A DNA stretch of 64,000 nt from Candidatus Woesearchaeota archaeon (GCA_019322805.1 JAHWIC010000001.1:67347-131346), one strand, 5' to 3'; shown: positions 10,393-38,365, counted from the stretch's first letter. Notes: a model not told the origin generated them from the sequence alone. A program made the numbers and translations.

Positions 10393-10480
10393 AGCTTTAA
10401 GGATTAAAGTCAGTCTTTTAAATATTTGTATTTAAAAGTGTCATAGAATGGGATCAATAGAAAGAATTCAATAAAAAATA

Positions 10481-10596: not shown

Positions 10597-10670
10597 ATTA
10601 TTTTTCTAATTATATTTTTTATTGATTAAAAACAAAAACTTAATAAAAAAGCAAAATATAGTGAAAAACC

Positions 10671-17488: not shown

Positions 17489-19210
17489 TTATTGCTTCAA
17501 TAAGATTTCTATAACAGCAGCATATGCTGGCCTTGCTATGAATACTCCAATAGATACGCCAAAGATTGTGGTAAGAGCAAATCCTTTTAACAAACCAGCT
17601 CCAGCAGCCAATAGCGGAATCATTGCTACAACTGTTGTGAGATAAGCAACCAGGATTATTGAAAATGCATTTTTGATGCGCTCTTTCCAATTGAATATCT
17701 TTTTTGATTCTCCTCTCAGGGTTTCGTCAGTAATAACTATCTGATGATCAACACTAGTACCAACAACTATTATGATGCCTGCTATAGCTGCTAGGTCAAG
17801 ATTCCAGTTTGCAATTGCTGCAAACCCCAATAGTATCACAACTTCAGAAACACAAGTTACCATCATTGGGGTAACTATCTCTAGTTTTCTGTATCTTAAG
17901 AATACGACAATTACCACAATAAGTATTGCCAACAAACCTACAACTAATGCGTTTCTAACAAACTCTTCTCCAAGTATCGGGCTTATTGAGTCTGTCTTGA
18001 TTATATCTATCTTAACTGGTAAAGAGCCTGTGATAAGGATTGTCTGCAGCCTTTTCATGTTTTGCAGTGCATTTATAGCTGCTTCCTGCTTTGTCATGCC
18101 AACGCCAGAGCCGGAAATCTGTATGTCTGTAGTTGCACTGCCTCTTAATTCTGCGCCGATATTAAGTGCATCTACCTGTTTATCATCAAGGTATAAGTAT
18201 ATCTTTTCACTAAGATACTGCTGGTTATCCTCTGATAATATTTCCAAGTCAGCTGTTGCATCTGCCTGTCTTTGTGCAGCTTCCTGAGACAAGGCAATTG
18301 AAAACCTAAAACGGCAGTACCATGCATTGCCTGATCTTCCGCAGCCAGCTCTTGGGTCAATTCCTGAGCAGTCTGCTGACTTGCATACATAGGTTATATC
18401 CCTTCCGCCAATAAAAACAGTTTCATTCTTTATCTTTGCCTCGAATTTTCCCTGCTTAGCAAGAAGCTCTCTTACCTCTTCTTCATTTACCCCAGGCATT
18501 TCAACGAGGATGTACTGGTTTCCAGAAAGGTCTCCAGCTTTTCTTACAACAACGTCACTAAGGCCATATACATTCAGCCTTTCCTTCATGTTCTCTAGGA
18601 GCATATCAAGACTAGGCTCATCTAGTTTTGTCTCTGGCTGTAATAAAACTCTTGTGCCTCCTTGCAAATCAAGGCCTTTTCTTATATTGGTGTTTGGTGC
18701 TTTATAGACCCTCAAGCCAATGTCTTCTGCACCAAGTAAGATTGTTTTTGTCTTTGGAACAGTGATTATTCTTGATCTAGTTTCATTTACAGTAACTAAG
18801 CTGCCATTTATTGTCTTGTTTACAGGCACTATCTCTATAACTGTTTTTGTTTCTGTCTCGTTTAGCTCGATTGTTTTTGTTTTTTCTTTTACTGTAAGCT
18901 TATAAGTATCCTTATTTGTTGTTATCCTTACTATTCTTCCAGGTTCTAGATCTCCTATGCCTTTATAGTAATCCTCAACCGTCTTTATCGGAATATTGTT
19001 TACAGCAATGATGCGCTCTCTACTCATCGGAGCTATATTGGGGGTTGTGCTTTTTATTCCAGCTAAGTTAGCGGAACTATTAGATATGACATTTCTTATA
19101 GCAACTCCTTCTGCTTTGGGGTTTGGATGTATTGCTACTATAGCTAGAAGTATGAATATGAAAAGTACAATTACCCTCGTATTCTTGAATACTTTCTTAA
19201 TCCTGTGCAT
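17489..19210 (-). CDS. secD: Protein-export membrane protein SecD
   Basis: 573 aa. It has an N-terminal TM, a large periplasmic domain and a C-terminal 5-6 TM bundle. It lies downstream of secF, as in archaeal secFD operons. Confidence 0.75.
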   Translation of the reverse strand: MHRIKKVFKNTRVIVLFIFILLAIVAIHPNPKAEGVAIRNVISNSSANLAGIKSTTPNIAPMSRERIIAVNNIPIKTVEDYYKGIGDLEPGRIVRITTNKDTYKLTVKEKTKTIELNETETKTVIEIVPVNKTINGSLVTVNETRSRIITVPKTKTILLGAEDIGLRVYKAPNTNIRKGLDLQGGTRVLLQPETKLDEPSLDMLLENMKERLNVYGLSDVVVRKAGDLSGNQYILVEMPGVNEEEVRELLAKQGKFEAKIKNETVFIGGRDITYVCKSADCSGIDPRAGCGRSGNAWYCRFRFSIALSQEAAQRQADATADLEILSEDNQQYLSEKIYLYLDDKQVDALNIGAELRGSATTDIQISGSGVGMTKQEAAINALQNMKRLQTILITGSLPVKIDIIKTDSISPILGEEFVRNALVVGLLAILIVVIVVFLRYRKLEIVTPMMVTCVSEVVILLGFAAIANWNLDLAAIAGIIIVVGTSVDHQIVITDETLRGESKKIFNWKERIKNAFSIILVAYLTTVVAMIPLLAAGAGLLKGFALTTIFGVSIGVFIARPAYAAVIEILLKQ

Positions 19211-20255
19211 TTTTATGCTTTCTTCCCAGATAAATCCTTAGGATACCAACATTCTGTATCCATGTATTAATCATATCTACCAATAATCCTATCAAGAGTA
19301 TTGTCATTATCTGTCTGATTACCTCTGATTGTGTAAAGATTAAAGCAACTATGATTGCACAGATGGTTGTTGAGCTCATCATTAATCCTGTTTTCATTGC
19401 TCCAATAATTCTTTCAAGCACTGTGCCTTCTTTCCTTTTGACAACCTTTGTGCTTAGAAGTATATTTGTATCTACAGAATAACCAATCAACATAAGGAAT
19501 GCTGCTATTCCTGCTGTGCTTAGTTTCATTCCAATGAGGTTTGCAATTGCTAAAGTAACTATAATATCAGAGAATGCTGCTAGGATAACAGCCAAGCTTG
19601 TTATCGGCACTCTAAATGATATAAACACAACAATCCCCATAAACAAGAAAGCTATAAGCACTGCCCTTATTGTTTCCTTAAAGAAGCTTGCTCCTAATGC
19701 TGAGCCCATTACCTCAACGCTGTAACCCTCTTCTCCTAAAGTTACCTTTAGGCTTGTTTCAACTGATGAGACCAGCTTTTCTAAAGAGTCTTTTTCGATA
19801 TCTGCATCAATAACAATTCCAGAATATGCTCCAGCTTGTTTTAAAGCCCTAACTGAGACATCATTTGCTGGAAACTGCGATGATAGATAGATTTCCAGAG
19901 CTGATATGTCAATTTCTTTATCAAAAGGAACTGTAAGTGTTAAGCCGCCTTTAAGCGAGACATCACGGTTAATAAAGTCTCCAGTAGTTGATACCTTGAG
20001 TATAATTGAGAAAATTGCCAGGAGGAGGATCAAAAAAGGAATAATTAACAGTTTCTTATATTGTTTGTCGTAAATCTCTTTAATGCTGAGCCTCTTTTTT
20101 TCTTTGTGTTCGATATGCTTCTCAACCTTGTGTTCTTTGGGTGTTTCAGGCTCTTTTTTCTCTTCAACCTTGGTTTCTTCAGTAGGCTTTTCAGTAGTTT
20201 CCTTAGATTCTTCAGTAGATTTCTCAGTCTGTTCTTCTTTATGTTCTTCTTCCAT
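19197..20255 (-). CDS. secF: Protein-export membrane protein SecF (with a K/E-rich N-terminal extension)
   Basis: 352 aa. It has SecF-like topology and overlaps secD by 14 nt. Confidence 0.7.
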   Translation of the reverse strand: MEEEHKEEQTEKSTEESKETTEKPTEETKVEEKKEPETPKEHKVEKHIEHKEKKRLSIKEIYDKQYKKLLIIPFLILLLAIFSIILKVSTTGDFINRDVSLKGGLTLTVPFDKEIDISALEIYLSSQFPANDVSVRALKQAGAYSGIVIDADIEKDSLEKLVSSVETSLKVTLGEEGYSVEVMGSALGASFFKETIRAVLIAFLFMGIVVFISFRVPITSLAVILAAFSDIIVTLAIANLIGMKLSTAGIAAFLMLIGYSVDTNILLSTKVVKRKEGTVLERIIGAMKTGLMMSSTTICAIIVALIFTQSEVIRQIMTILLIGLLVDMINTWIQNVGILRIYLGRKHKNAQD

Positions 20256-20296
20256 TATTGAGAATAAGTGACTTTGGTTTATTTATTAATCTTATG

Positions 20297-22009
20297 CTAT
20301 TTGGATGCGGCTCTTACAAACCCATAGAATAATGGGGCTGGCTTTCCTAAGGCTGATTTAAACTCAGGATGTGCCTGCGTAGCTATGAAGAATTTTAATT
20401 TAGGCAATTCTATGAATTCCATCAACTTTGTACCATCTTCTCTGATATGCTGGCCAGAGAATACTAATCCCTTCTGTTGGAGCTGGTCAATAAATTTGGG
20501 ATTTACTTCATACCTATGCCTATGTCTTTCAAGTACAATATCATCTCCACTAAGCTTCCCTAACCTAAAACTTTGTGTTTTATCTGCTTTAAGTTGTTCT
20601 ATCTTTTCCTTATCTTCTTTTAATCTTCCAGTTTCCTTATAGAGCTGATAAATCCTAGTGCCTTTTTCCAGCTTTGCAGCATATGCTCCAAGCCTCATAG
20701 TTCCTCCGTAATCGCCTTTTTCCAGTATTTCTTTTTGTGTAGTCAATACATCAATGACTGGATACTGTGTTTTCTTATCATTCTCTGTTGTGTTTGCTCC
20801 TTTCATCTGTGCAATGTTCCTTGCGAATTCAACAACAGCAAGCTGCAGACCATAGCACAATCCTAGGAAAGGAACATTATTCTCTCGAGCATATCTTATA
20901 GCATCAATCTTCCCTTCAACACCACTTGAACCAAAACCACCTGGAATGATAATCCCTTTGTAGGATTTTAGCATCCTAGCAACATTGGAACCTTTCTCTA
21001 ACTTTTTTGCATCTATCCAATCAATTTCAACTCCAACATCTAAGGAGGAACCGGCGTGTATCAAGGATTCATTTATTGATATATAAGAGTCTTTTAGAGT
21101 GAAACTTCCTATATCTACATACTTGCCAACCATTGCAATCTTTGTCTTTTTCTTGGGAGCTATTATCCTTCCAACGAGTTTCTCCCATTCCTTGAAGCTT
21201 GGCTTCTTCTCTAGTTTCATCCTAAACTCAGACAGCATCTTTAATCCAAAATTCTCTTTTTCCAGGTCAAGAGGAATCCTGTATATCGTATCTATGTCCG
21301 GCTCAGATATTACATATTCTGAAGGAATATTCGCGTAAGTCTCAATCTTTTTCTTCCTGACATTATCTATAGGTTCTTTAGACCTGCATATGATAAAATC
21401 AGGAAAGATTCCATTTTCAGAAAGCATCCTTATTGCCTGCTGTGTTGGCTTGGTTTTCATCTCCCCCATATGACCTGGAGTTGGAAGATAAGTAACAAGA
21501 ACATAGATTATATTCTCTTTGCCTATTTCTCTCTCGAGTCTTTTCATGGCAAACAGGAATGCGATGTTTTCAAAATCTCCTATAGTCCCGCCTACTTCAA
21601 CAAGTGCAAAATCAAATCCATGAGAAGCATCTTTTATGCGATGTATAATCTCTTCAGGAATATGAGGTATGAATTGAACAGTCTTGCCAAGAAACTCTCC
21701 CTTTCTTTCTCTATCAATAACTGTCTTGTATATCTGACCAGTTGTTATGTTATTCTTCTTGGGAATATCTATACCTAGAAATCTTTCGTAATTTCCTAAA
21801 TCCTGATCTATTTCGCCACCATCATCAGTAACCCACACTTCACCATGCTCTGTGGGTCTTAATGTTCCTGCATCATAGTTTAAGTAAGGGTCTATTTTAA
21901 TCGCAGTTACTTTATAGCCATATTCCTTGAGAATCTTTCCTATTGAAGCTGTTGTAATGCCCTTTCCAACTCCAGAAATAACGCCGCCTGCTACAACTGT
22001 ATACTTAGT
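20297..22009 (-). CDS. pyrG: CTP synthase
   Basis: N-terminal synthetase motifs (MTKYTVVAGGVISGVGKGITTAS) and a C-terminal GATase domain (GLCYGLQ). Confidence 0.9.
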   Translation of the reverse strand, partial: TKYTVVAGGVISGVGKGITTASIGKILKEYGYKVTAIKIDPYLNYDAGTLRPTEHGEVWVTDDGGEIDQDLGNYERFLGIDIPKKNNITTGQIYKTVIDRERKGEFLGKTVQFIPHIPEEIIHRIKDASHGFDFALVEVGGTIGDFENIAFLFAMKRLEREIGKENIIYVLVTYLPTPGHMGEMKTKPTQQAIRMLSENGIFPDFIICRSKEPIDNVRKKKIETYANIPSEYVISEPDIDTIYRIPLDLEKENFGLKMLSEFRMKLEKKPSFKEWEKLVGRIIAPKKKTKIAMVGKYVDIGSFTLKDSYISINESLIHAGSSLDVGVEIDWIDAKKLEKGSNVARMLKSYKGIIIPGGFGSSGVEGKIDAIRYARENNVPFLGLCYGLQLAVVEFARNIAQMKGANTTENDKKTQYPVIDVLTTQKEILEKGDYGGTMRLGAYAAKLEKGTRIYQLYKETGRLKEDKEKIEQLKADKTQSFRLGKLSGDDIVLERHRHRYEVNPKFIDQLQQKGLVFSGQHIREDGTKLMEFIELPKLKFFIATQAHPEFKSALGKPAPLFYGFVRAASK

Positions 22010-22180
22010 CATAGCCACCAACCCCTAAAACAATTGTAGAATTAATGATCTGCAAACTTTCTGTTAGCTGCATTATACAAGTAGTTGACTTTTCATATAT
22101 AAAACTTTCTACAACGGGGGTTGTTGATTCTACACAACATTTAAATATTCGTTCTAGGATTTGTTCTGTAGGGGTTACCA

Positions 22181-23695
22181 ATGAAAAAAGGCTTTAGCAC
22201 AGAAAAATATCTGAAAATCCAGACAAAAGAGATAAAGGACAGAGTCGCTAAATTTGGGGAAAAGCTGTATCTTGAATTTGGGGGCAAGCTTTGCCATGAT
22301 TTTCATGCTGTAAGGGTCTTACCTGGTTATGAACCAGATACTAAGATAGAGGTTCTCAAGGCTTTAGGTGAGCAGATAGAAATTATCTATTGTATCAGCG
22401 CCAAGGATATCCAAAAAGGCAGGATACGCCATGACTTTGGACTGCCTTATGATAAACAGGTTATGAAGGATTTAAAAGATCTAAAAGAAAGGGGCCTTAG
22501 TATTTCTATTATTAACATAGCTTTGTTTAGCGGAGAAGAATCAGCTTTGCGTTTTAAGAGAAAGATGAAGAACTTTGGGTATAAGGTTTATACTCAACCT
22601 GTTATAGAAGGCTATCCTCATGACATTAAGAAAGTAGTTAGTGATAAAGGCTGCGGAAGCCAGACTTATATCCCTACATCTAAACCAATAGTAATAATAA
22701 CCGGCGCAGGTGGCGGCTCTGGCAAGATGGCTTTGTGCTTATCGCAGATGTATCATGACACAAAAAAAGGTGTTAATCCAGGTTATGCAAAATTCGAAAC
22801 ATTCCCCATCTGGAACTTGGATATAGACCACCCAATTAATGTTGCTTATGAAGCTGCAACTGCTGACTTAGGAGATATTAACATAGTTGACCCATTCCAC
22901 TTAAAACATTATAAGAAGACGGCTATAAATTACAACAGGGATATAGAAAATTTCGATATTATGAAACGCATAATGAATAAGATTGTTTCAAAAGATAATT
23001 ATGTCCGAAACTATAAATCTCCGACTGATATGGGGGTTAATATGGCTGGGTTTGCTATTACAGATGATAAGGTCTGCAGGGAAGCAGCAAAGCAAGAAAT
23101 CATAAGGAGATACTTTCGTTATAAGAAAGAATTACTGCTTGGAATAGAAAAACCTGAAACAGTTGAGAGAATAGAAATCCTGATGGAGAAACTAAAATTA
23201 AAGCCTGAGGATAGAAAGGTTGTAACTGCTGCTAGAAAGGCTGAAAAAGAAGCTAAAAAAACAGGCAAAGGAAATAAAGGCGTATATTGCGGAGCTGCAA
23301 TACAATTGCCGGATGGCAGAATAGTAACTGGCAAAAATTCTCCATTACTGCATGCTGAGTCAGCAGCAGTTATTAATGCTGTAAAAACACTGGCTAATGT
23401 AAAGGATAAAGCTGATCTTATCCCTTCAGAAATCCTGAAAAATATTAATATACTTAAGAAGGACGTGCTTAAGGGGGCTTCAGAAAGCTTGAATTTAGAT
23501 GAAACTCTGATAGCTTTAGCAATCAGTGCAAAATACAACAAAAACACAGAAAAATGCATCAAAATGTTAGGCAAACTCAATAATTGCGATATTCATGTTA
23601 CTTATCTGCCAAGCGAAGGAGATGATGTGGGTTTAATAAAGCTCAGGATGAATGTGACTACAGATGCGAAGCTGACTTTTAGGAATAATTCCTAG
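22181..23695 (+). CDS. UPF0371/DUF1846 family protein
   Basis: 504 aa. The family-typical N-terminus LYLEFGGKL...HAVRVLPGYEP is present. Confidence 0.7.
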   Translation: MKKGFSTEKYLKIQTKEIKDRVAKFGEKLYLEFGGKLCHDFHAVRVLPGYEPDTKIEVLKALGEQIEIIYCISAKDIQKGRIRHDFGLPYDKQVMKDLKDLKERGLSISIINIALFSGEESALRFKRKMKNFGYKVYTQPVIEGYPHDIKKVVSDKGCGSQTYIPTSKPIVIITGAGGGSGKMALCLSQMYHDTKKGVNPGYAKFETFPIWNLDIDHPINVAYEAATADLGDINIVDPFHLKHYKKTAINYNRDIENFDIMKRIMNKIVSKDNYVRNYKSPTDMGVNMAGFAITDDKVCREAAKQEIIRRYFRYKKELLLGIEKPETVERIEILMEKLKLKPEDRKVVTAARKAEKEAKKTGKGNKGVYCGAAIQLPDGRIVTGKNSPLLHAESAAVINAVKTLANVKDKADLIPSEILKNINILKKDVLKGASESLNLDETLIALAISAKYNKNTEKCIKMLGKLNNCDIHVTYLPSEGDDVGLIKLRMNVTTDAKLTFRNNS

Positions 23696-23699
23696 ATTT

Positions 23700-24266
23700 C
23701 TAGATAAACGCTCTGAACAATCCCTGGAAAAAGTGGAAACCGTCAAAGCCAGGTATTGGAAGCATATTGAAGACTGCTAAGAACAAGTTTAGTTTTCCCA
23801 TCGGAACTAATATGTTATGGTATTTTTTGAGAACATTATTCTTAACTGCTAATCTTATTAAGCCCCAAATCATGAAATTTGTTAATGGTCCTGCTAATGC
23901 AATCCAGGCTGAGGGTAATGCGGGCAATGGTGTATGAGCAACATAGCCACCAACAAAAAAAATCAAGGGGAAATTCATAGCTCTAAGAGCTATTACAATT
24001 GCATACATCAAGTAAGGCGCCTTAAGAACTGCAATTGCGCCATAAGACATTGCAACAAACTTATGCGCTAATTCGTGCAGAATAACAGCTGGTGCAGCAA
24101 TCATAGCAGCAAATTTAATATTTTCCCAGCCAAGGGATTTGCTAAAGTATTTTATTGGGTCATAGCCCTCGTGGGGTGTCCTCTTGAAAAATCCAGAGAA
24201 GATATAGCCTATGGCAAAGGTCATTATTATAATGTCTATGATTTCCATCGGTGTTATGAATGCCAT
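23700..24266 (-). CDS. Small site-2-protease-like (peptidase M50 family) membrane metalloprotease
   Basis: 188 aa. The HELAHK (HExxH) motif and the second motif NMLPIPGFDG lie within TM helices. Confidence 0.7.
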   Translation of the reverse strand: MAFITPMEIIDIIIMTFAIGYIFSGFFKRTPHEGYDPIKYFSKSLGWENIKFAAMIAAPAVILHELAHKFVAMSYGAIAVLKAPYLMYAIVIALRAMNFPLIFFVGGYVAHTPLPALPSAWIALAGPLTNFMIWGLIRLAVKNNVLKKYHNILVPMGKLNLFLAVFNMLPIPGFDGFHFFQGLFRAFI

Positions 24267-24326
24267 ACAGATATAAACAAAAACTTTATATTTAAGCTTT
24301 ACTAACTATGGTTTAGGGGTGGAACT

Positions 24327-24476
24327 ATGATTGGAATGACTGAAATCCTGGTTATATTGGCAATAGTGCTTATATTATTCGGACCTAAGAAATTACCAGA
24401 GCTAGCAAGGTCTATAGGAAAAGCTGTTAGGGAATACAAGAAAGGCCTAAGCTCTGATAAGAAGCCTAGAGGCTAA
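24327..24476 (+). CDS. tatA: Sec-independent translocase component TatA/E (49 aa), not in the ORF track
   Basis: MIGMTEILVILAIVLILFGPKKLPELARSIGKAV matches the TatA TM helix plus amphipathic helix. It sits directly upstream of tatC. Confidence 0.7.
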   Translation: MIGMTEILVILAIVLILFGPKKLPELARSIGKAVREYKKGLSSDKKPRG

Positions 24477-24504
24477 TTTTCTTCTGTAGAAAGGGGCGTA
24501 AGTA

Positions 24505-25203
24505 TTGAAAATGAAAGATGGGCCCATAATCGAGCATTTGGATGAATTAAGAAGCAGGTTAATTCCAGTTATCATTATTATTCTGGTATTCTTTGTTTTA
24601 GGAACCCTTGTTTCTGGAAAGGTCATTGATTTTGTAAATGACGATCTGATGAATGAGCACGTCAAATTGATCTCAATAACCCCTTTGGAGTTTATGTTGA
24701 CAAAAATAAAAGTAGGGCTTTTGGTTTCTGTGATCATCAGCAGCCCAGTGATTGTCTACCAGGCACTGACATTTGCAAAACCTGCCTTAAAAAAAAGGGA
24801 AAGATCTATGATGAGGTTTGTTCTTCCTTCATTTGTGCTGTTGTTCTTGATAGGCATTGCCTTTGCTTATTTTATCTTTTTACCAGTTGCAATATTCTTT
24901 CTAACCAGATTTTCTGAAGGTTTAATCTATAATCTATGGAGCATTAACCGGTTCTATTCATTTATCTTTGTAACCTGTTTAAGCGCTGGCCTGATTTTTC
25001 AGCTGCCTTTACTGATGTTGGTTTTGAAGAAATTGAATATTATTGATATTGAATTCTTAAAAACAAAAAGAAGCCATGTTTATGTTTCAATTTTTGTTTT
25101 GGCTGCGCTGCTTACTCCGCCGGATGTCGTTACTCAGGTTTTGATTGGACTGCCCTTGATTTTGTTGTATGAATTAAGTTTGGCTGTTATGAAGTTATTT
25201 TGA
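24505..25203 (+). CDS. tatC: Sec-independent translocase TatC
   Basis: 232 aa. The TatC-like N-terminus (IEHLDELRSRL) and six TM helices are present. Confidence 0.8.
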   Translation: MKMKDGPIIEHLDELRSRLIPVIIIILVFFVLGTLVSGKVIDFVNDDLMNEHVKLISITPLEFMLTKIKVGLLVSVIISSPVIVYQALTFAKPALKKRERSMMRFVLPSFVLLFLIGIAFAYFIFLPVAIFFLTRFSEGLIYNLWSINRFYSFIFVTCLSAGLIFQLPLLMLVLKKLNIIDIEFLKTKRSHVYVSIFVLAALLTPPDVVTQVLIGLPLILLYELSLAVMKLF

Positions 25204-25716
25204 ACCTTCAAAAGGAAACCTCGCCATCCTCAATCTGGCAGGTTCAGGAAGCCAGTCATGGGTTGTTACATTTACAGTTCGTAGAAATTCTAAAAGTTCT
25301 GTAAGTTGTTCTCGAGTTATGGTTCCGCTGTAGAAATGATAATTTTCTGAGTATGATCTGCTATCTGACCGTTTACTATATCTCTTAGAGAGTTCTGAAT
25401 CAATAACAGGAAAAGGAACATCAGCAAGCTCATCTTTAGGAAGCACATGACGATCCCCACGATTTAGGAGAGCATCAGAGGTTATTTTCTCAAGGTCACC
25501 AGATAGTCTTTGTGTTGCAGCAAACTCTTCTGAGCCGCGTTTTGTGTATGGTAACTTCCTACCAATATATAGAATAGCATTAATCCTACATGGAGTACCT
25601 TCATCTCCTGATATTTCATAATATAGCCTCATTTTGTCTCCAATTTCTCTAGAATTCACCCCTTTTGCAGATAGAAACCGAAATTTGTTTATAAAATTAT
25701 TCTTCCTCAAAAACAA
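25195..25716 (-). CDS. Hypothetical protein (173 aa), last gene of the AmmeMemoRadiSam-containing operon
   Basis: The ORF overlaps the upstream Memo-AMMECR1 gene by 20 nt. No family recognised. Its GC content appears slightly higher than neighbouring genes. Confidence 0.45.
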   Translation of the reverse strand: MFLRKNNFINKFRFLSAKGVNSREIGDKMRLYYEISGDEGTPCRINAILYIGRKLPYTKRGSEEFAATQRLSGDLEKITSDALLNRGDRHVLPKDELADVPFPVIDSELSKRYSKRSDSRSYSENYHFYSGTITREQLTELLEFLRTVNVTTHDWLPEPARLRMARFPFEGSK

Positions 25717-27175
25717 AAGCCTGGTAAGTGGAAACCTCTGTAGAAGTGTCCTGCCAGCAGTCTAAAGCCATTCCTCCTTTTCTGCACAGGCTTGATAAGA
25801 ACTGTTCTTTTTCAGGCAGCTGCTCCCATACCTGAGGCAGGTAAGTTGACTGGCGCCAGCCCTGTTTTAGAACAACACCATCCACCATGGGCCTTAATTT
25901 ATTTTTTAGGTCCTCGCCTGAGGAAAACCCTAATCTCTCTGGAACTGATAATACAGATATTTCTATGACAATATCCTCAAGTTCATCATAGGTTACTGGA
26001 TGAAACCTGCGGTCATTAACAGCTGCATTAACAGCATTATCCATAACACATTTGTACAACTCTTCCTGTGGGAGAATATGTCCGATGCATCCTCTGAGTT
26101 GATGATACTTGTTTAAGGTTGTAAAACAGCCCTGCACTTTCTTTAAAGCTGGAGTTAATTGAGTTTCATCAACCTTTGGCTTTTTTCCTTCTGTAAGGTA
26201 TTTTTCAAGTGTATCTCTTGCTAAAGTCAAAAGGATCTCTTGCTCATGTTTAGTTAACGGCTCTTTTTCTTCACCATAAAAAACAATTGCACTGTATCCT
26301 ACAACCCTTGATTTGTCTCCTGCAGTATCTCCGCTGTTTTTATAATCAATTATCTTTGCCTGCCAGTTTTTTTGCTTTGCAATATCCATCAGAATTAAGA
26401 TAGCATACAAGCTGCAAGCTTCGCAGTTTGTTGCTTCCCAAAAATCTAAGGCTTCAATACTGTTTATGCATGTTGTATCAAGGCTAACTGCTTCATCATA
26501 AGTATGATAATGCGAGAGGTCAGAGCTGATTACAATTAATGTATCATCGTCAACATATTCTGAAAGAATATCTGCTGCTTGCTGTATTTGGTCAAGGCTC
26601 AAGCCGCCAGTTACTAAAGGAATTATCTCAAAATCTGTTAGTTTTCTTTGCAGGAATGGGAGCTCTATCTCCAGTATATGCGCTGTATGTGCTTCAGGAA
26701 CATTAACAAACAAGCTGTTTTTTAGCAATTCCTTCGCTATCGAAGATACCTTAACCTCCCCTAAAGGGGTCTTATAATGAGTAAATTTTGGGACAGAAAT
26801 TCCCTGCACATTTACACCACTTACATGGTTTGTTCCTATCAGGATTACTCTCTTGTAATCTTTCTCCAGCCGGTTAAAACCCTGAGCTGCAACCTGTCCA
26901 GAATAGATATACCCTGCGTGAGGAACAATCAAAGCCTTAATTGAACCATCAATCTCAACCTCTCTAGCATTAGCAAGGTAATCATCAACGGTTTTTGTTA
27001 GTGTTAGTTTGTTTCCTGGGTACCAGGTTCCTGCAACCAATGGCTCGCGAACTATTTTTTCTTCAATTTCTTCCTGGTAGCTTGTTTTTTGTATTAATAC
27101 GAATAGGAAAATGATTAAGAAAAAAACAAATACTATCATATGCTCTTTTCTTATTTTTTCTTTTATTTTTTTCAT
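25697..27175 (-). CDS. Fused Memo-like (AmmeMemoRadiSam system protein B) + AMMECR1 (protein A) with an N-terminal signal anchor
   Basis: 492 aa. The N-terminal TM is MIVFVFFLIIFLFVLI. The Memo core is GTWYPG...VPHAGYIYSG. The C-terminal AMMECR1 motif is LRGCIGHILP. Confidence 0.75.
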   Translation of the reverse strand: MKKIKEKIRKEHMIVFVFFLIIFLFVLIQKTSYQEEIEEKIVREPLVAGTWYPGNKLTLTKTVDDYLANAREVEIDGSIKALIVPHAGYIYSGQVAAQGFNRLEKDYKRVILIGTNHVSGVNVQGISVPKFTHYKTPLGEVKVSSIAKELLKNSLFVNVPEAHTAHILEIELPFLQRKLTDFEIIPLVTGGLSLDQIQQAADILSEYVDDDTLIVISSDLSHYHTYDEAVSLDTTCINSIEALDFWEATNCEACSLYAILILMDIAKQKNWQAKIIDYKNSGDTAGDKSRVVGYSAIVFYGEEKEPLTKHEQEILLTLARDTLEKYLTEGKKPKVDETQLTPALKKVQGCFTTLNKYHQLRGCIGHILPQEELYKCVMDNAVNAAVNDRRFHPVTYDELEDIVIEISVLSVPERLGFSSGEDLKNKLRPMVDGVVLKQGWRQSTYLPQVWEQLPEKEQFLSSLCRKGGMALDCWQDTSTEVSTYQAFVFEEE

Positions 27176-27176
27176 T

Positions 27177-28364
27177 TTAAGTAAAAACCCCGGCTATTGG
27201 TTCATTGCAAAATTTGCATTTCCCATCAACAATATTGTTCTGTATTATGGTATAGCCTTTTCTTTCTATTAATACTTTACTACAGGATGGGCAGTAGGTG
27301 TTTGTTGCTTCATGTCCAGGAACATTTCCTATATATACAAACTTTATTCCTGTTTCCAAAGCAATATTCCTTGCTTGTTCCAGGGTTTTTACTGGAGTGT
27401 AAGGCAGATGGGTAAGCTTGTAATGCGGAACGAAGCGCGAGAAATGTAGAGGATAATCTTTGCCGAGGTTCTTTACAATCCATTCGCACATCTCTTTTAT
27501 CATATCCATATCGTCATTTATTGTTGGTATTACAAGGTTTGTTATTTCAAACCAGGTATTTTCATCCTTTAATGTCTTTAATGTGTTAAGTACTGTTTGT
27601 AAGTCACCAGAGCATATTTCGCTGTAAAGCTCCTCAGTAAAGTGCTTTAGGTCAACATTTGCTGCATCTAAGTGCTGGGCAAGATCCCTTAATGGTTTTT
27701 CATTCATATACCCCTGGGTTACCCATACATTTCTCAAGCCGTGTTTATGTGCGAGCTTTGCAGTATCATACATATATTCATAAAAGGCAATAGGCCCTGA
27801 ATAAGTATAAGCAATTGATTTTGTGTTATAGCGAATAGCTTCGCTTACAACCTGGTCAGGAAATAAATCATAATTATTTGTGTCCTCTGGTCTTTGCTGG
27901 CTTATAGTCCAGTTCTGGCAGTTTAGACATCTAAAGTTGCAGCCAGCAGTTGCTATTGAAAATATGCTTGTTGCTGGCAGGAAATGGTATAATGGCTTTT
28001 TCTCGATTGGGTCTATATGAACAGCACAGGGATTTCCATAAGACAAAGCATAAAGCTTTCCATTATGGTTTATTCTTGTCCTACAAAAGCTGCGCTGACC
28101 CGGAGCTAATAGGCATTTATTAGGGCAGAGCAGACACTGGACACTTTCGCCTTTCTTTGTATAATAAAAGCTTTCCTTAGACCATTTCCATAATTCTGTT
28201 GGAGCATCCTGTGAGACAACGCCTTTTGCTTTTTGCAGAAAGTATTTGTTTAAGAAATAGCCTCCTAAGCTTAGACCAGCTAAGCCTGTTAAACCATATT
28301 TGATAAAATCACGTCTATTAATTTTTTTGTTTAGAAAAGTTATTTCTTTCTCTTTTTTCTTCAT
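27177..28364 (-). CDS. AmmeMemoRadiSam system radical SAM enzyme with a twin-arginine-like N-terminus
   Basis: 395 aa. The N-terminus NRRDFIKYGLTGLAGLSLGG is followed by the Cys cluster CLLCPNKC. The radical SAM CNFRCLNC (CxxxCxxC) motif and a C-terminal Cys4 cluster are present. Confidence 0.8.
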   Translation of the reverse strand: MKKKEKEITFLNKKINRRDFIKYGLTGLAGLSLGGYFLNKYFLQKAKGVVSQDAPTELWKWSKESFYYTKKGESVQCLLCPNKCLLAPGQRSFCRTRINHNGKLYALSYGNPCAVHIDPIEKKPLYHFLPATSIFSIATAGCNFRCLNCQNWTISQQRPEDTNNYDLFPDQVVSEAIRYNTKSIAYTYSGPIAFYEYMYDTAKLAHKHGLRNVWVTQGYMNEKPLRDLAQHLDAANVDLKHFTEELYSEICSGDLQTVLNTLKTLKDENTWFEITNLVIPTINDDMDMIKEMCEWIVKNLGKDYPLHFSRFVPHYKLTHLPYTPVKTLEQARNIALETGIKFVYIGNVPGHEATNTYCPSCSKVLIERKGYTIIQNNIVDGKCKFCNEPIAGVFT

Positions 28365-30514
28365 TTTTTATTAAGGTACATTATTGTTCCGCTTATTAAA
28401 TTTAATGCCCCAATCAAAATACAAACCTTGACTATGCCAAGCAGAGGAATAAGTAATGTGCTAACTAAAATAGCACCTATACAAGCTCCAATAAAGTCTG
28501 ATGCATAAAGTATTCCTGCTGTATGTGCAACCTTTTTGAAATGAAGCTTTGCTGCTAAAGGAAACTCCATCCCAACAAGAATAGCCAGGATTAAAGTTAA
28601 TATTGGGAATGCGAATTGTGCACTAAGGAGTATTAGATTTTCATTTTTTATGTTTTTTAAGAGGATAAATATGACTGGTAAAAGGATTGAATATAACAGA
28701 ATTGAAAACTCGATCTTAACCAAGTCTTTGATTGATTTTTTCTTTAATGTTCTGTTCATATAATGAGAACCGAGTGCCAAGCCAAGCATAAACATCGTCA
28801 CTATCACACCAATCTTATGATAAACATAGCCATACAGAATCTGAAATCCAATCAAAATAATTACTTCCAAGGACGAGGCTGCAAAACCTGTTGTAAATAT
28901 TGCAAATGGAATTGGCTTTGTTTTCAGCAGATAAAGAATCACTAAGATTGCGAATATAATGAAGAATATTGAATAATTAACCTTAAAGTAAGATATCCAA
29001 TAAAGTAAGTGATAGAAGTAAGTTATCGGGTTAAGGTCCTTGTTTAAGGGAACATCTTCATTTATTGAATTTAACACTAAATTAATTCTGTCTTCTGTAA
29101 GTTTGCCAATGAGATAATACTTATTCACATAATCTGTTTGTATTGCTTTTTCCTCAATTTTTTCTGCAATATCATAGGTTAATTCCTTATCTGAAGCTAT
29201 GAAGAAATTTTCAGCATCGGGGATTATGATTATATTGGAAAAAACCTGCGATAAGGTTTTATACAAAGCTGAATTTGACTGCCTGACTTCTTTGCTCATA
29301 TAATTCTCAGCAGAACTTAAGCTTAAACTGATAACTGCATCATCATTTAATATTTGTTTTAATTCTTTAAAGAACTCAATTGTGTAAAATCTGTTGATTT
29401 GTGCTGTGCTTGGGTCTGGTAAGTCAATAATAACAATATCATATTTGTTATTTGTCTGCTTAACAAATAATCTTGCATCAATATTGTGGATTTTTATCTT
29501 TTCATTCTCTAAATTTGTTGTAAATCTTTTTCCAACATCAATTATTAATGGGTCTAATTCAATGTAATCAATATTATCAGGGTTGTACTTTAGTATTTCG
29601 TTCACTGTTCCTGAAACACCGCCAGAGATAAGAAGGATATTCTTTGGAGCTTCATGCTGTACCATTGCATAATGCACTGTTTCTTCATTAGCGATTGTGT
29701 TTTCTGTTGCGAACAGAGCAATTCCATTCTCAAAGAAGTTTAATTGGTCTGCAGTTTTAGTCACAACCAAGCTGCCATATCTTGAATTTTTATGAAATAA
29801 TAATTCCTGGCCTTTGTATTGCTGCTGGATTGATAATTTTTCCAAATCAACAGAGAAAAAACCAATAACCAATAACAAAAATAAAACAACAACCGAATAT
29901 TTCAGAATATTATTTTTAATAAATATTGACAGTAATAAAGCTGCTAATAAATTTAGAATCATAATAAACAAAGCCATCTGGAAGTGATTCAGGAAATAAA
30001 TCAGGATAAAGCTGAATAAGAAACCGCCCAGGATATCACCAATAGCATCAATAAAATAAACCTTGCCGATTGAGGCAGAATCCTTTTTTGTGGTAAAAAC
30101 ACAGCATGCAAGAATTAATAATGAGCCAGATATAATGCAGTAAGGAAGCAGTATTACAAATGATGAAAGGAAGATTCTTATTGCTCCAATTAATTCTCCT
30201 GGAAGGAAAATCAGATTTCTAAGATTCCTTATTATGAATATATGGAAGAACGGAAGAACTGCTATAATTATCTCTGAAATTATTAATAATCTAAATTTGT
30301 CCTTAACTTTTTCAATATACTTTCCTAAATAAGAGCCAATTCCTGTCAATAACAACCAGTTTCCAAGAATTATCCCAAAAACAAGCTCATTGCCGTAGAA
30401 AACAGTTAAGAACTCACGCATTATTGTGAGCTGAGTGATCATTGCAGATATGCCTAAGGCTGTTATTGCAAAGAACAATAGTTTCTCTCTTTTTGGGATG
30501 TTTTTGAAAAACAT
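28361..30514 (-). CDS. Polytopic membrane protein fused to a spermidine-synthase-like (PABS) domain
   Basis: 717 aa with about 8 N-terminal TM helices. The central segment LLISGGVSGTVNEILK...YIELDPLIIDV resembles the SpeE SAM-fold. Additional C-terminal TM helices follow. It overlaps the radical SAM gene by 4 nt. Confidence 0.7.
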   Translation of the reverse strand: MFFKNIPKREKLLFFAITALGISAMITQLTIMREFLTVFYGNELVFGIILGNWLLLTGIGSYLGKYIEKVKDKFRLLIISEIIIAVLPFFHIFIIRNLRNLIFLPGELIGAIRIFLSSFVILLPYCIISGSLLILACCVFTTKKDSASIGKVYFIDAIGDILGGFLFSFILIYFLNHFQMALFIMILNLLAALLLSIFIKNNILKYSVVVLFLLLVIGFFSVDLEKLSIQQQYKGQELLFHKNSRYGSLVVTKTADQLNFFENGIALFATENTIANEETVHYAMVQHEAPKNILLISGGVSGTVNEILKYNPDNIDYIELDPLIIDVGKRFTTNLENEKIKIHNIDARLFVKQTNNKYDIVIIDLPDPSTAQINRFYTIEFFKELKQILNDDAVISLSLSSAENYMSKEVRQSNSALYKTLSQVFSNIIIIPDAENFFIASDKELTYDIAEKIEEKAIQTDYVNKYYLIGKLTEDRINLVLNSINEDVPLNKDLNPITYFYHLLYWISYFKVNYSIFFIIFAILVILYLLKTKPIPFAIFTTGFAASSLEVIILIGFQILYGYVYHKIGVIVTMFMLGLALGSHYMNRTLKKKSIKDLVKIEFSILLYSILLPVIFILLKNIKNENLILLSAQFAFPILTLILAILVGMEFPLAAKLHFKKVAHTAGILYASDFIGACIGAILVSTLLIPLLGIVKVCILIGALNLISGTIMYLNKK

Positions 30515-30590
30515 CTTTAACTATTCTTTATTATAGAGGTATTTATATCTTTTGACAACTTTTATAAAACACCACCAATTCTTCCTTTTA

Positions 30591-30947
30591 ATGACAGAAC
30601 TTATCGCATGCTTATCATCAGGAAAAGGAACATGGGGTCATGTTTCCAGGCTGATTGATGGCCAGGAATGGGAAAAAGTCTTTCTAATAACTGATTCTTT
30701 TGGTAAAGAGAAGTTTGAGAAGAAAGGTAATGTTGAGTTTATTGTCATTGATCCAAACAAATTCCTGCCAGAGCTTGCTGAAGACATTAAAACACAACTA
30801 AAAGACAAAATAACTGGCTTAGAAGTTGGTGTAAACTTCATAAGTGGCTCTGGAAAAGAACATATGGCTCTTATGTCAGCTCTACAACAATTAGGAGTTG
30901 GTCTAAGACTAGTTGCATTAACAAAAGAAGGAATCAAAGAAGTTTAA
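30591..30947 (+). CDS. Hypothetical protein (about 118 aa)
   Basis: ORF chosen with its start at MTELIACLSSGKG. No family recognised. Confidence 0.4.
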   Translation: MTELIACLSSGKGTWGHVSRLIDGQEWEKVFLITDSFGKEKFEKKGNVEFIVIDPNKFLPELAEDIKTQLKDKITGLEVGVNFISGSGKEHMALMSALQQLGVGLRLVALTKEGIKEV

Positions 30948-31684
30948 GCTAATGGTTCTGGCTCTGATTTAACAACACCATAGAATTCTAACAATAATCT
31001 ATCAACATACCTTATAAGCTCGTAGCCATAACCATGTATCTCAATGCAGTTGCCTTTGAGATCAATCTTAGGTATTGGGGATTCTATTAAAGATATTATT
31101 GCATGTTCAGTGTTGCTGCAGTTTAATACTGGTCTTCCTTTGCATGCGCTGCAAGCTTCATAATCGCAGTCTCTATCACAAACTGCAATCACTTCATTTC
31201 CAAAGGCTGTGTTTAGGCTTTGAGTTAATTCTCCGACAGCTACAGCAATGTAAGTTAATTCCTTACCGAGAGGATCAAACGAGATGTAGATTGTAGTTGC
31301 GTTATTGAACTTATCATTAAGACCGCCATACAAAGGAATATCTTCTACGTCTTTAGGACCATAACGCAGAGGAACATTAACTAAAACTCCTTTTGACTGA
31401 ACCTGGAAATACCACATGCCGTCAAAATTAATAAAACTATGAGGGCCGTACATATAGCCTTGCTCTGGTTTAAGCTTACCTTGTATGTTTAATCTATGTG
31501 CATCTTCTATAGTCAAAACTTGTTCTTCTGATGGAATAACGTACCTTAACAATACAAAGATTAAGAATAATCCAACAATAGAAATTATAGCATAAAGGAG
31601 AACCTTATCCGATATCTGCTGTTCTTCAACCGCTTCTTCTTTTTTCTCTTTCTTTTCCTTTTTTGCAGTTTCCTTTGCTGTCAT
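30944..31684 (-). CDS. Hypothetical membrane-anchored extracytoplasmic protein with a Cys-rich C-terminal region
   Basis: 246 aa. It has a K/E-rich N-terminus, one TM helix, and 8 Cys in the C-terminal 80 aa. Confidence 0.5.
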   Translation of the reverse strand: MTAKETAKKEKKEKKEEAVEEQQISDKVLLYAIISIVGLFLIFVLLRYVIPSEEQVLTIEDAHRLNIQGKLKPEQGYMYGPHSFINFDGMWYFQVQSKGVLVNVPLRYGPKDVEDIPLYGGLNDKFNNATTIYISFDPLGKELTYIAVAVGELTQSLNTAFGNEVIAVCDRDCDYEACSACKGRPVLNCSNTEHAIISLIESPIPKIDLKGNCIEIHGYGYELIRYVDRLLLEFYGVVKSEPEPLA

Positions 31685-32253
31685 TTAATAATCCCCAATA
31701 TAGCATATAATAATCTATCTTTTATTTTAATAACATCCTCTCCCCTATAAGCTTCTGCTATAATGCAGTTTCCTTCCATATAAACCTTGGTTTCATTTGA
31801 TTTCTTGAAATACAGCACTGGAACATACATTGTCGCGTCATCGCAGGTTACTATTGGCCTGTTGAACTCATTTTCTGTTGTAAAGCCAGCCACAACAAAC
31901 ATATCAAAATTGCTCAGGCCTTGTGCTAAGGTATATTGAACTTTTGCAATGTATTCTGCATAATCATCATCTATGTCATAAGTTATATCAATTTCAACTG
32001 CGCTTAATCTTTGGGCTATTTCAGAATTCAAATCTATGTGCTCTACTTCTGTTGGATGATAATTAAACACAGCATGTTTGCCATTTATTTTGGTAGACCA
32101 CCCATCTGCTTCCTGAACAAAAGGAATTCCATTATATTCAACTTTTGGAGGTCCGCCTTTCCAAAGAAAACCCATTACACTTGTAACCAGGATGAATGCT
32201 ATAAACCCCATCATAAGGTTCTGCATCCTTTTGCTGTCTTTTTTCTTTTTCAT
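31681..32253 (-). CDS. Hypothetical signal-anchored extracytoplasmic protein
   Basis: 190 aa with an N-terminal TM. It overlaps the downstream ORF by 4 nt, which suggests an operon. Confidence 0.5.
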   Translation of the reverse strand: MKKKKDSKRMQNLMMGFIAFILVTSVMGFLWKGGPPKVEYNGIPFVQEADGWSTKINGKHAVFNYHPTEVEHIDLNSEIAQRLSAVEIDITYDIDDDYAEYIAKVQYTLAQGLSNFDMFVVAGFTTENEFNRPIVTCDDATMYVPVLYFKKSNETKVYMEGNCIIAEAYRGEDVIKIKDRLLYAILGIIK

Positions 32254-36988: not shown

Positions 36989-38365
36989 ATGCGCAGAGAC
37001 TTAACTAATGGCAGTGTAACCAAGAATATTCTCCATCTAGCATGGCCTATGATGGTTGCTTTTACTCTGCATGTAGGCTTTAATCTTATTGATACAATCT
37101 TTGTAGGAAGGTATAGCGCTTTAGCTCTTGCATCTATCTCTATAACCTTTCCTGTGATATTCCTGATAATAGCGCTTGCATCTGGTGTTGGTATAGGGGT
37201 TACATCGTTTATAGCAAGGCTGATTGGTGCAAAGAAGGTCAACAAAGCTAAAGACGTTGCAAAGCACGGCTTGATTTTAGCTTTTTTTATGTGGATATTC
37301 TTTGTTGTTGCTGGTTTGGCTTTTGCAAAACCCTTGTTTATGTTTTTAGGAGCAGAAGGAGAGATATTGTCTATGTCCCTCAAATATGCTTATACTATAT
37401 TTATTGGAAGCTTCTTTATGTTCTTTGCATTTATCGGCAATAGCATTCTAAGAGGAGAAGGTGATACAAAAACTCCGATGAAGATAATGGCGCTTGCCAC
37501 TGTCGTAAATATCATCCTCGATCCCCTTATGATATTTGGTTTATGGGTTTTTCCTGAACTGGGTATATTTGGTGCTGCTCTTGCAACAGTTATTGCAAGA
37601 TCAATCTCTGCATTTGTTATCCTGGGGTACTTATTTAAGGGAAATGCCCTGGTTAAACTGGATTTTAAACTTCCTAAATTCGATTTCAGAATAATCAAAG
37701 AGATATTCGAAGTAGGAATTCCTGCTTCATTGTCGCAGTCTGTTATGTCCCTCGGAATGTTCTTTATGATGAAGATAGTATCATTTTTTGGACCTTACGC
37801 AATTGCAGCTTATGGCCTTTTAGGAAGGCTTGATTCTGTTGCAATCTTGCCCGCACTTGGCATAGGTTCTGCTGTCATCACTATTGTTGGCCAGAACGTA
37901 GGCGCAAAGAAGTTTGACAGGGCAGAAGGAACAGTGTGGAAATCTGGTTTATTAGCAGCTGTTTTTATGGAATGCGTTGGAATAATATTCTTTATTATGC
38001 CCAGATTGTGGATAACTATCTTCAATAAACACCCGGACATCATCAGCTATGGGGTAAGTTATTTACGAATAGTTTCCTTAACTTATGCCTTCATTGGATT
38101 AGGCATTATTATTGGAGCTGCTTTCCAGGGAGCAGGCAAAGGATATCCTTCCTTAATGTTAACGATTATAAGGTTGTTTGTCTTAAATATTCCTTTAGCA
38201 CTTATCTTCGCATTTGTACTGGGTTTAGGCCTTGAAGGTGTGTGGATGGGGATTATGACGTCAATTATACTATCAGGCATTATTAGCGCTGTCTGGTTTA
38301 AGCTTGGAACCTGGAAGAAAGGAAAACATATACCAGTAGAGATGCCAGAAGGGATAGAAGGCTAG
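36989..38365 (+). CDS. MATE family efflux transporter
   Basis: 458 aa with 12 TM helices and a MATE-like N-terminus. Confidence 0.8.
   Translation: MRRDLTNGSVTKNILHLAWPMMVAFTLHVGFNLIDTIFVGRYSALALASISITFPVIFLIIALASGVGIGVTSFIARLIGAKKVNKAKDVAKHGLILAFFMWIFFVVAGLAFAKPLFMFLGAEGEILSMSLKYAYTIFIGSFFMFFAFIGNSILRGEGDTKTPMKIMALATVVNIILDPLMIFGLWVFPELGIFGAALATVIARSISAFVILGYLFKGNALVKLDFKLPKFDFRIIKEIFEVGIPASLSQSVMSLGMFFMMKIVSFFGPYAIAAYGLLGRLDSVAILPALGIGSAVITIVGQNVGAKKFDRAEGTVWKSGLLAAVFMECVGIIFFIMPRLWITIFNKHPDIISYGVSYLRIVSLTYAFIGLGIIIGAAFQGAGKGYPSLMLTIIRLFVLNIPLALIFAFVLGLGLEGVWMGIMTSIILSGIISAVWFKLGTWKKGKHIPVEMPEGIEG

Follow-up and report, generated by a model that had tools for sequence, protein, structure and literature searches.

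AMMECR1 and Memo occur as conserved proteins from archaea to humans, and both have links to human disease; to our knowledge, neither protein has a defined biochemical function. Structures of both exist without an assigned chemistry, and no structure has been solved for the radical S-adenosylmethionine (SAM) enzyme that forms the AmmeMemoRadiSam system with them, the nearest being that of pyruvate formate-lyase activating enzyme (29 bits). We know of no described radical SAM enzyme that is exported by the twin-arginine translocation (Tat) pathway, and a full-text literature search found no such enzyme. The same search found no link of AMMECR1 or Memo with spermidine synthase, the major facilitator superfamily (MFS), isoprenoids, the periplasm or Tat, and leaves room for an earlier account in Burroughs et al. 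2019, a work that reportedly extends the gene contexts of Memo and mentions isoprenoid modification. AMMECR1 was reported to be the strongest single Pfam marker of the anaerobic lifestyle, being found in 3.4% of aerobes vs. 50.7% of anaerobes (PMC13386939). Here, we analyzed a 64-kb stretch of DNA from Candidatus Woesearchaeota, a DPANN archaeon (the window, to whose full length all coordinates refer), in which a tightly packed operon of three genes on the minus strand (25697-30514) encodes a system of this kind together with a membrane partner. The genes, in order of transcription, are:

28361-30514, minus strand: gene 1, a 717-aa MFS transporter with an inserted spermidine-synthase-fold (SpeE-fold) domain, named "fused MFS/spermidine synthase" by NCBI
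27177-28364, minus strand: gene 2, a 395-aa AmmeMemoRadiSam-type radical SAM enzyme (TIGR04337)
25697-27175, minus strand: gene 3, a 492-aa Memo-AMMECR1 fusion (system proteins B and A; TIGR04336 and TIGR04335)

We read this operon, at a probability of about 0.68, as an extracytoplasmic variant of the AmmeMemoRadiSam system, encoded by three co-transcribed and probably translationally coupled genes and acting by the mechanism proposed below. Judged by profile scores, the window's three core domains truly belong to the system. The gene 2 protein scores 387.9 bits against TIGR04337 (cut-off 220), and an identical NCBI entry bears the AmmeMemoRadiSam-type radical SAM name, while the gene 3 protein scores 238.9 bits against TIGR04336 (cut-off 26; aa 43-299) and 198.4 bits against TIGR04335 (cut-off 99; aa 314-489). 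All three models are passed by proteins that are encoded together, and the identity assigned to these genes in the original prediction, which was made from the sequence alone, is upheld. That prediction had also described a four-gene operon with overlaps of 4, 0-1 and 20 nt. All four minus-strand open reading frames (ORFs) are present in the ORF listing, and reading the junctions gave a 4-nt overlap of the gene 1 stop with the gene 2 start (ATGA) and a 1-nt spacer between genes 2 and 3 (TAA-a-ATG); the 20-nt overlap arises only if the fourth ORF starts at TTG. The cassette itself consists of three genes, and the fourth ORF (173 aa) falls outside the system.

The placement of the radical SAM enzyme turns on its N-terminus, which precedes the catalytic domain as follows:

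28224-28364, minus strand: Tat-type leader/anchor, aa 1-47, with a K/E-rich n-region, an RR motif, a G/A/S/T-rich h-region and a basic c-region
27918-27941, minus strand: CxxxCxxC radical SAM cluster motif (C142, C146, C149), in invariant columns of the homolog alignment

The sequence N-R-R-D-F-I-K occupies aa 16-22 (nt 28299-28319, minus strand), with a run of 17 uncharged residues after it; the sequence beyond the leader shows no AxA cleavage site. An AlphaFold2 (AF2) model of the enzyme, of moderate quality (predicted local distance difference test [pLDDT] 71.5) and used for the N-terminal helix and linker only, has a single helix at residues 17-47, then a low-confidence linker, and then the catalytic domain. 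Among the 120 closest radical SAM homologs (56-67% identity), xRRxF[LI]K occurs within the first 60 residues in 105, with KR or RK in most others, and the position-specific consensus of the leader is K-I-[ST]-R-R-[ED]-F-[IL]-K, the two arginines being found in 101 and 109 of 112 sequences. In its consensus form, the motif is conserved in ~110 of the 120 homologs; a lack of conservation among orthologs had been named as refuting the original prediction. The h-region is weakly hydrophobic, with a median best-window Kyte-Doolittle value of 1.70 and 52% G/A/S/T, whereas the anchors of the Memo-AMMECR1 proteins from the same lineages have a hydropathy of 3.44 and 13% G/A/S/T (Mann-Whitney p = 2.6e-35). 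Weak, G/A/S/T-rich hydrophobicity in Tat leaders and strong hydrophobicity in those of the general secretory (Sec) pathway is the classical contrast between these targeting sequences. Against the Tat-signal model TIGR01409, the window's N-terminus scores 16.8 bits (curated cut-off 16.7), and against Pfam PF10518 (TAT_signal) 17.5 bits, under the gathering score of 22.7. Five of nine orthologous N-termini tested pass TIGR01409 more clearly, several leaders from Desulfobacterales resemble the uncleaved Rieske Tat anchor, and some orthologous leaders match the Rieske Tat-signal model (22.8 bits). Elsewhere in the 64-kb window, no ORF carries another credible Tat motif. From these features, we strongly infer that the radical SAM enzyme carries a genuine, conserved Tat-type leader.

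Two variations on this leader were seen among related loci. Loci from Bacteroidota and Ignavibacteriota (L003, L009, L010, L013 and others, by our locus numbers) consistently carry K-R instead of R-R, e.g., N-K-R-Q-F-I-K, often followed by a Cys-containing stretch (e.g., LGSCAC) that is a possible lipobox, which suggests that these proteins may be Tat-dependent lipoproteins. Two loci from Syntrophaceae/Deltaproteobacteria, L072 (3457-4515, minus strand) and L075 (11303-12397, minus strand), encode a second, different radical-SAM-like protein of 352-364 aa with a T-R-R-D-F-I-K/R Tat-type leader; its gene is oriented divergently from the AmmeMemoRadiSam-type gene, and the protein matches no NCBIfam family above threshold. 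Radical SAM proteins with Tat leaders may comprise more than one family.

The Memo-AMMECR1 fusion begins with an anchor of the other type, and its parts are:

27089-27175, minus strand: Sec-type N-terminal signal anchor, aa 1-29 (MKKIKEKIRKEH followed by MIVFVFFLIIFLFVLI)
26279-27049, minus strand: Memo domain, aa 43-299, by profile and structure matches
25709-26236, minus strand: AMMECR1 domain, aa 314-489, by profile and structure matches

The best 13-residue Kyte-Doolittle hydropathy of the anchor is 3.67, and a K/R-rich start followed by a strongly hydrophobic segment is found in 103 of 113 close homologs. Fusions of ~500 aa occur in 46 related loci. Some archaeal members have lipobox-like ...GC motifs, and in bacterial orthologs the leader is of the classical cleavable Sec type, in several of them with a lipobox (e.g., L-x-G-C in Nitrospirota). 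Public gene calls put the start of the window protein at Met13 (480 aa). An upstream ATG, 1 nt past the radical SAM stop, contributes MKKIKEKIRKEH, and since this segment supplies a positively charged n-region such as most homologs have, the longer start looks more likely. The fusion of components A and B behind a transmembrane (TM) anchor, another claim of the original prediction, agrees with these sequences. A Bacteroidales locus, L029, provides an internal control, as its stand-alone Memo, encoded beside a signal-less radical SAM gene, has no hydrophobic N-terminus. In that locus (3934-7316), the signal-less pair (a 335-aa radical SAM protein and a 296-aa Memo) lies directly upstream of genes for an exported-type Memo-AMMECR1, an MFS/SpeE-like protein and a Tat-type radical SAM enzyme, so that cytoplasmic and exported AmmeMemoRadiSam systems stand in tandem.

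The gene 1 protein is a polytopic membrane protein with a PF01564 (Spermine_synth) match at residues 275-438, and it passes the NCBIfam model NF037959, "fused MFS/spermidine synthase" (74.7 bits vs. 40). An AF2 model built on a 52-sequence alignment (pLDDT 90.9; predicted template modeling score [pTM] 0.89) has seven helices, a globular domain at 224-508 and seven further helices, and contains two six-helix bundles with the MFS fold:

29852-30493, minus strand: TM helices 1-7 (aa 8-221), the MFS N-bundle and an extra helix leading outward
28991-29845, minus strand: SpeE-fold domain (aa 224-508), predicted to be extracytoplasmic, with SGGVSGT for GGGDGGV and with E319, D346 and D364-x-x-D367-P kept
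28373-28975, minus strand: TM helices 8-14 (aa 514-714), an extra return helix and the MFS C-bundle

In MFS transporters, the two termini and the central loop are cytoplasmic, and helices 7 and 8 would therefore form an extra hairpin that places the SpeE-fold domain at the outer face. Averaged over the family, the predicted inside loops carry ~23 K+R residues vs. ~4.7 in the short outside loops. The domain is thus predicted to face outside, carried on the extra helix hairpin of a 14-helix MFS transporter. Structural neighbors of the model include MFS lipid transporters (LtaA 6s7v, SPNS2 and a triacylglyceride transporter) and amine/cation transporters (VMAT2, VAChT and FLVCR). Several acidic residues are conserved in the TM helices of the family, which would suit a cationic cargo such as SAM or an amine and proves nothing.

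The SpeE-fold domain departs from spermidine synthases in its cofactor site. In alignment to human and other spermidine synthases, GGGDGGV is replaced by SGGVSGT in the window protein, and at the position of the GGGDGG Asp the 52 close homologs have V/I/A without exception, while none of the 57 wider orthologs has D. The ribose-binding Glu and the adenine-binding Asp are invariant, and the catalytic/amine-binding D-x-x-D (D364, D367) is kept in the window and its archaeal clade and is mostly N/E in bacterial orthologs. The GGGDGG Asp holds decarboxylated SAM by its aminopropyl amine and repels the carboxylate group that SAM retains (PMC3725402). In a plant spermidine synthase, D103I abolished aminopropyl transfer and brought putrescine N-methyltransferase activity, which V106T raised, and the equivalent D101I in the Thermotoga enzyme lowered kcat ~2000-fold (PMC3725402). 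The window domain carries both switch changes (D103 to V; V106 to T). Scores against the aminopropyltransferase equivalog models are well under cut-off (NF002956, 211.5 vs. 472; NF002010, 106 vs. 260; TIGR00417, 90.9 vs. 249.6), and an ordinary spermidine synthase was rejected on these thresholds and the motif change. Since the Asp needed for decarboxylated SAM is missing, the domain probably uses SAM instead, a view that we hold with moderate confidence; it may be a SAM-using methyl- or alkyltransferase, or at least a SAM-binding domain, and not an aminopropyltransferase. The description of this protein as polytopic and spermidine-synthase-like was therefore right as to its PF01564 domain and TM helices, but an aminopropyltransferase is unlikely, and the protein is more specifically an MFS protein with an inserted outward domain.

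In four of the 120 closest MFS/SpeE-like proteins, the C-terminus is extended by a further membrane module that contains PF12801 (Fer4_5) and two CX3CP motifs. Variants of this kind (~955-971 aa) comprise P0174, P0181, P0184 and P0198 and were seen at L102 2677-5592 and L103 8001-10871; in L102, one of the four is encoded in a full cassette next to tatC-tatA, and in L103 the variant stands alone. NapH and NosR, which have a module of the PF12801/CX3CP type, pass electrons to periplasmic enzymes. By analogy, the module hints at, and would fit, a need for outward electron supply.

The association of the genes was examined in a one-genome-per-species scan with the radical SAM alignment. The scan returned 80 loci from DPANN and Altiarchaeota and from Bacteroidota, Ignavibacteriota, Desulfobacterota, Nitrospirota, Verrucomicrobiota, Omnitrophota, Clostridia and others. 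When 2,312 ORFs of these loci were clustered all against all, only three families recurred in most of the loci, i.e., the radical SAM enzyme, the ~715-aa MFS/SpeE-like protein and the ~500-aa Memo-AMMECR1 fusion. The remaining recurrent clusters consisted of antisense shadows of these three genes and of scattered neighbors (such as a response-regulator-like family and an ABC ATPase), and no ferredoxin, SAM synthetase or lipid genes were found as further conserved neighbors among the 2,312 ORFs. In 43 of the 49 informative loci (at least 3.5 kb on both sides), the MFS/SpeE-like gene lies within 3.5 kb of the radical SAM gene, in 42 on the same strand and in 38 directly upstream; AMMECR1, as Memo-AMMECR1, lies within 6.5 kb in 38 of 49. 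The association spans DPANN, Altiarchaeota and at least six bacterial phyla, so that the neighborhood is conserved in relatives and extends to at least one cultured isolate, Mangrovibacterium marinum DSM 28823 (L034), which carries the full cassette. As a control, a metagenome scan with the signal-less radical SAM paralog of L029 returned 21 loci, and none of the 13 signal-less loci with enough flank had an MFS/SpeE-like gene. Two loci of the control scan, L087 (Tat-type) and L093 (no leader), belong to the window's radical SAM clade, and both have the MFS/SpeE-like gene. In a neighbor-joining tree of catalytic cores, the signal-less enzymes fall apart from the leader-bearing, MFS-linked enzymes. 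In addition, tatC or tatAC adjoins the cassette in the window and in L002, L004, L011 and L102 among archaea, and in L044 and L065 among bacteria. Because both the motif and the gene neighborhood recur across phyla, they are not chance, and the three cassette genes are very likely linked in function. The observation behind the original prediction is confirmed and most of its interpretation supported, none of its refuting conditions having turned up, and the cassette proves to be a broadly conserved module, not a local oddity.

Taken together, these features suggest oxygen-sensitive radical chemistry outside the cytoplasm. As to topology, the MFS fold, the loop charges, the Sec or lipobox leaders of Memo-AMMECR1 orthologs and the recurrent tatAC adjacency all indicate an outward placement. 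In the mechanism that we propose, the radical SAM enzyme would be loaded with its iron-sulfur (Fe-S) cluster(s) in the cytoplasm and then moved, folded, across the membrane by the adjacent TatAC, probably staying tethered by its leader, since no cleavage site is visible. Memo-AMMECR1 would be inserted by Sec and held by its N-terminal anchor, with both catalytic domains outside, and the 14-helix MFS transporter would hold its SpeE-fold domain between the two extra helices and hence outside as well. These three placements, which we strongly infer, make an extracytoplasmic location of the system likely. The chemistry that follows is more conjectural. The MFS part might carry a small cationic molecule across the membrane, either the substrate or SAM itself, and the outward domain might use SAM, most likely as an N-methyltransferase or other alkyltransferase acting on an amine. 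The radical SAM enzyme, Memo and AMMECR1 might carry out the radical transformation that their cytoplasmic counterparts perform, but on a target that is exported or exposed at the membrane, and electrons might come from outside or through the membrane, as the NapH/NosR-like module of a few orthologs would fit.

Several points weigh against this reading. Localization rests on arguments from motif, fold and charge, and the window's own scores with the two Tat models (TIGR01409 and Pfam TAT_signal) are marginal. Neither SAM nor a low-potential reductant is known to be available outside the membrane; supply of SAM by the transporter is a conjecture that we consider rather unlikely, and the NapH-like fusion is rare (4/120). 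In most bacterial orthologs, Asn replaces the first catalytic Asp of the SpeE-fold domain, so the domain might bind a ligand and no more, and the signal-less control set is small and derives from a single Bacteroidales query. Finally, four loci from Nitrospirota (Thermodesulfovibrionales; L035, L040, L043 [9989-10963] and L047) keep the MFS/SpeE-like protein and a lipobox-bearing Memo-AMMECR1 with a leaderless radical SAM enzyme, and L093 likewise keeps the MFS/SpeE-like gene beside a leaderless one. These enzymes are 324 aa long, start directly at the catalytic core and nest beside the leader-bearing clade in the neighbor-joining tree. Since the radical SAM enzyme of Nitrospirota has no N-terminal extension, the three cassette proteins may work in different compartments; either these enzymes have lost the leader and act inside, or the three proteins act in sequence on a substance that crosses the membrane. 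The leaderless enzymes of Nitrospirota therefore favor a substrate that can be transported or that lies in the membrane, rather than a fixed protein outside the cell.

A membrane-embedded substrate could be a lipid or lipid-linked carrier. The MFS protein would then flip lipids, as LtaA, Spns or MFSD2A do, the outward domain would methylate or alkylate an amine head group, and the radical SAM enzyme, Memo and AMMECR1 would act on that lipid too, each from the face at which it lies. Such a cassette would be a variant of the extracytoplasmic system in which the substrate alone differs, and it would be reachable by the exported radical SAM enzyme and the cytoplasmic one of Nitrospirota alike. The MFS lipid transporters among the structural neighbors of the model agree with it, as does the isoprenoid modification to which Burroughs et al. 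2019 reportedly link Memo contexts, but amine/cation transporters are equally among the structural neighbors, the conserved acidic TM residues suit a cationic solute and the neighborhood has no conserved lipid-biosynthesis gene. We consider a lipid substrate rather unlikely.

The system could also act at the cytoplasmic face, with catalytic domains inside and the N-terminal segments serving as membrane tethers or, in the radical SAM enzyme, as a vestigial Tat motif for chaperone/cofactor proofreading as in NarG. Radical SAM chemistry requires SAM and a low-potential donor, the radical SAM enzyme of the Nitrospirota cassette is leaderless and presumably cytoplasmic, and the window's leader combines marginal Tat scores with the lack of an AxA site, all of which would be accounted for by an inside location. 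However, the K/R-rich n-regions before the hydrophobic segments predict an N-in/C-out orientation for both the radical SAM enzyme and Memo-AMMECR1, and what is conserved is a complete n-h-c Tat architecture rather than a remnant. Moreover, the cleavable Sec/lipoprotein leaders of bacterial Memo-AMMECR1 cannot leave the domain inside, the MFS fold with its 7+7 helices puts the SpeE-fold domain outside, and tatAC adjacency is recurrent. We therefore regard a cytoplasmic-face system as improbable.

Slightly less probable still is a single-turnover activase resembling pyruvate formate-lyase activating enzyme (PFL-AE), exported with its cluster and perhaps a bound SAM, that installs a stable radical or one-off modification on an outside protein, possibly Memo-AMMECR1. 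Such an enzyme would solve the cofactor paradox without SAM export, as no continuous external supply of SAM and electrons would be needed, and among solved and curated proteins the radical SAM enzyme comes closest to glycyl-radical activases (PFL-AE 3c8f, TIGR02493 and YjjW). That similarity is weak, however, at 29 bits; profile search and locus clustering found no glycyl-radical-enzyme domain or conserved target gene, and the obligatory MFS/SpeE-like partner is left unexplained. Lastly, an incidental adjacency, in which the 717-aa protein is an ordinary membrane-bound spermidine synthase of polyamine metabolism as its PF01564 match and the database names "spermidine synthase" would have it, is highly improbable, being largely refuted by synteny across Archaea and at least six bacterial phyla (43/49) that is absent by signal-less paralogs and opposed by the start/stop codon overlap of genes 1 and 2, by scores far under the aminopropyltransferase equivalog cut-offs (NF002956, TIGR00417) and by the loss throughout the family of the Asp that binds decarboxylated SAM.

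The surroundings of the operon include the following elements:

24327-24476, plus strand: tatA, 49 aa, by sequence, by tblastn matches to tatA beside related systems and by PF02416 at the homologous position in L102
24505-25203, plus strand: tatC, 232 aa, PF00902 199.8 bits and TIGR00945 179.2 bits (cut-off 132.7)
25195-25632, minus strand: orphan ORF, 145 aa from ATG 25632 (173 aa, 25195-25716, from TTG 25716)
30526-30548, minus strand: A+T-rich TATA-like elements ATATAAAT and CTATAATAAAG, 12-34 nt upstream of the gene 1 ATG, found by eye

The two Tat genes lie directly downstream of the operon and are convergent with it. They had been placed about 700 bp away; both are real genes, and they are closer, the tatC stop overlapping the end of the 173-aa ORF and lying 494 nt from the Memo-AMMECR1 stop. 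For the orphan ORF, public gene calls, its sole database match and a GGAG 6-10 nt upstream all point to a start at Met29 (ATG 25632), which leaves a 64-nt gap to the Memo-AMMECR1 gene and no overlap. An exhaustive phmmer search of 1.84 billion representative proteins with the 145-aa product returned only itself, tblastn gave no match in 101 related loci, and there was no Pfam or NCBIfam match. With an in-frame codon score of 0.176, like that of real genes, it is probably a real, lineage-specific orphan gene and not a conserved part of the system; its candidacy as a fourth component was rejected on these grounds. The TATA-like elements fit a candidate archaeal promoter for one leaderless or short-leader transcript of the operon, and an Rfam scan of 24200-31000 found no credible non-coding RNA in or around it.

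Farther out, export genes cluster next to the operon (17489-25203), comprising secD-/secF-like genes (17489-20255), a gene for a small M50-family intramembrane protease-like protein (23700-24266), tatA and tatC, with a CTP synthase gene and a DUF1846 gene between them. On the other side, at 30552-32253, are three ORFs of 131 aa (plus strand), 246 aa and 190 aa (both minus strand), none of which matches a Pfam or NCBIfam family or recurs near related cassettes; the two minus-strand products each have an N-terminal hydrophobic segment. An unrelated radical SAM superfamily protein of 312 aa is encoded at 38362-39300 (minus strand; PF04055, 35.5 bits), between a MatE transporter gene and a CorA gene.

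An exported system that is hard-wired to a transporter narrows the search for the substrate to something that crosses or sits in the membrane, and it raises the question of how SAM and low-potential electrons are delivered to an Fe-S radical enzyme outside the cell. Since M. marinum DSM 28823 is cultured and has the full cassette, genetics and fractionation are feasible. That DPANN archaea with tiny genomes keep the cassette, with tatAC beside it, suggests importance for the cell surface or a symbiotic lifestyle. We tentatively put forward, as a possibility short of an even chance, that this is the first of its kind, a radical SAM system acting outside the cell with a Tat-exported radical SAM enzyme, a secreted Memo-AMMECR1, an MFS protein with an outward SAM-binding domain, a dedicated route for SAM or substrate and electrons drawn through the membrane. 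It would be widespread in strict anaerobes, from DPANN to Bacteroidota, Desulfobacterota, Verrucomicrobiota and Omnitrophota, and would make or edit a molecule of the envelope or the extracellular space.

Compared with known systems, the window's operon is closest to canonical AmmeMemoRadiSam. Its three domains are adjacent and well over the curated cut-offs, the CxxxCxxC and flanking Cys motifs are kept, and its radical SAM enzyme is 36-49% identical to signal-less members. It differs in that A and B are fused behind a Sec anchor (a lipoprotein leader in orthologs), that the radical SAM enzyme has a Tat leader and that an MFS/SpeE-fold partner is obligatory, whereas signal-less systems are without such a partner. 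Unlike NF037959 and PRK03612-type membrane aminopropyltransferases, the window protein holds its domain as an insert between TM helices 7 and 8 of the 14, not as an appended part, and misses the thresholds of real aminopropyltransferase equivalogs; throughout its family, the GGGDGG Asp is replaced by V/I/A. The putrescine N-methyltransferases (PMTs), which arose from spermidine synthase by a cofactor switch, share two of three switch substitutions with the window domain (D103 to a hydrophobic residue and V106 to T), and the amine-binding DxxD is kept in the archaeal clade of its family; on the other hand, there is no specific sequence kinship to plant PMTs, the Q79 position is N and not T in the window, and many bacterial orthologs have N/E at DxxD. 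The radical SAM enzyme has its nearest solved structure, and its nearest characterized families by sequence, in PFL-AE and the glycyl-radical activases, but the similarity is weak, and it has extra N- and C-terminal Cys motifs and no glycyl-radical enzyme partner. Finally, it resembles Tat-exported or Tat-anchored Fe-S proteins such as Rieske, NapG and HybA in being a cofactor-bearing Fe-S protein with an S/T-R-R-x-F-L-K leader and probably no cleavage site, and differs from them in that its passenger is a radical SAM enzyme.

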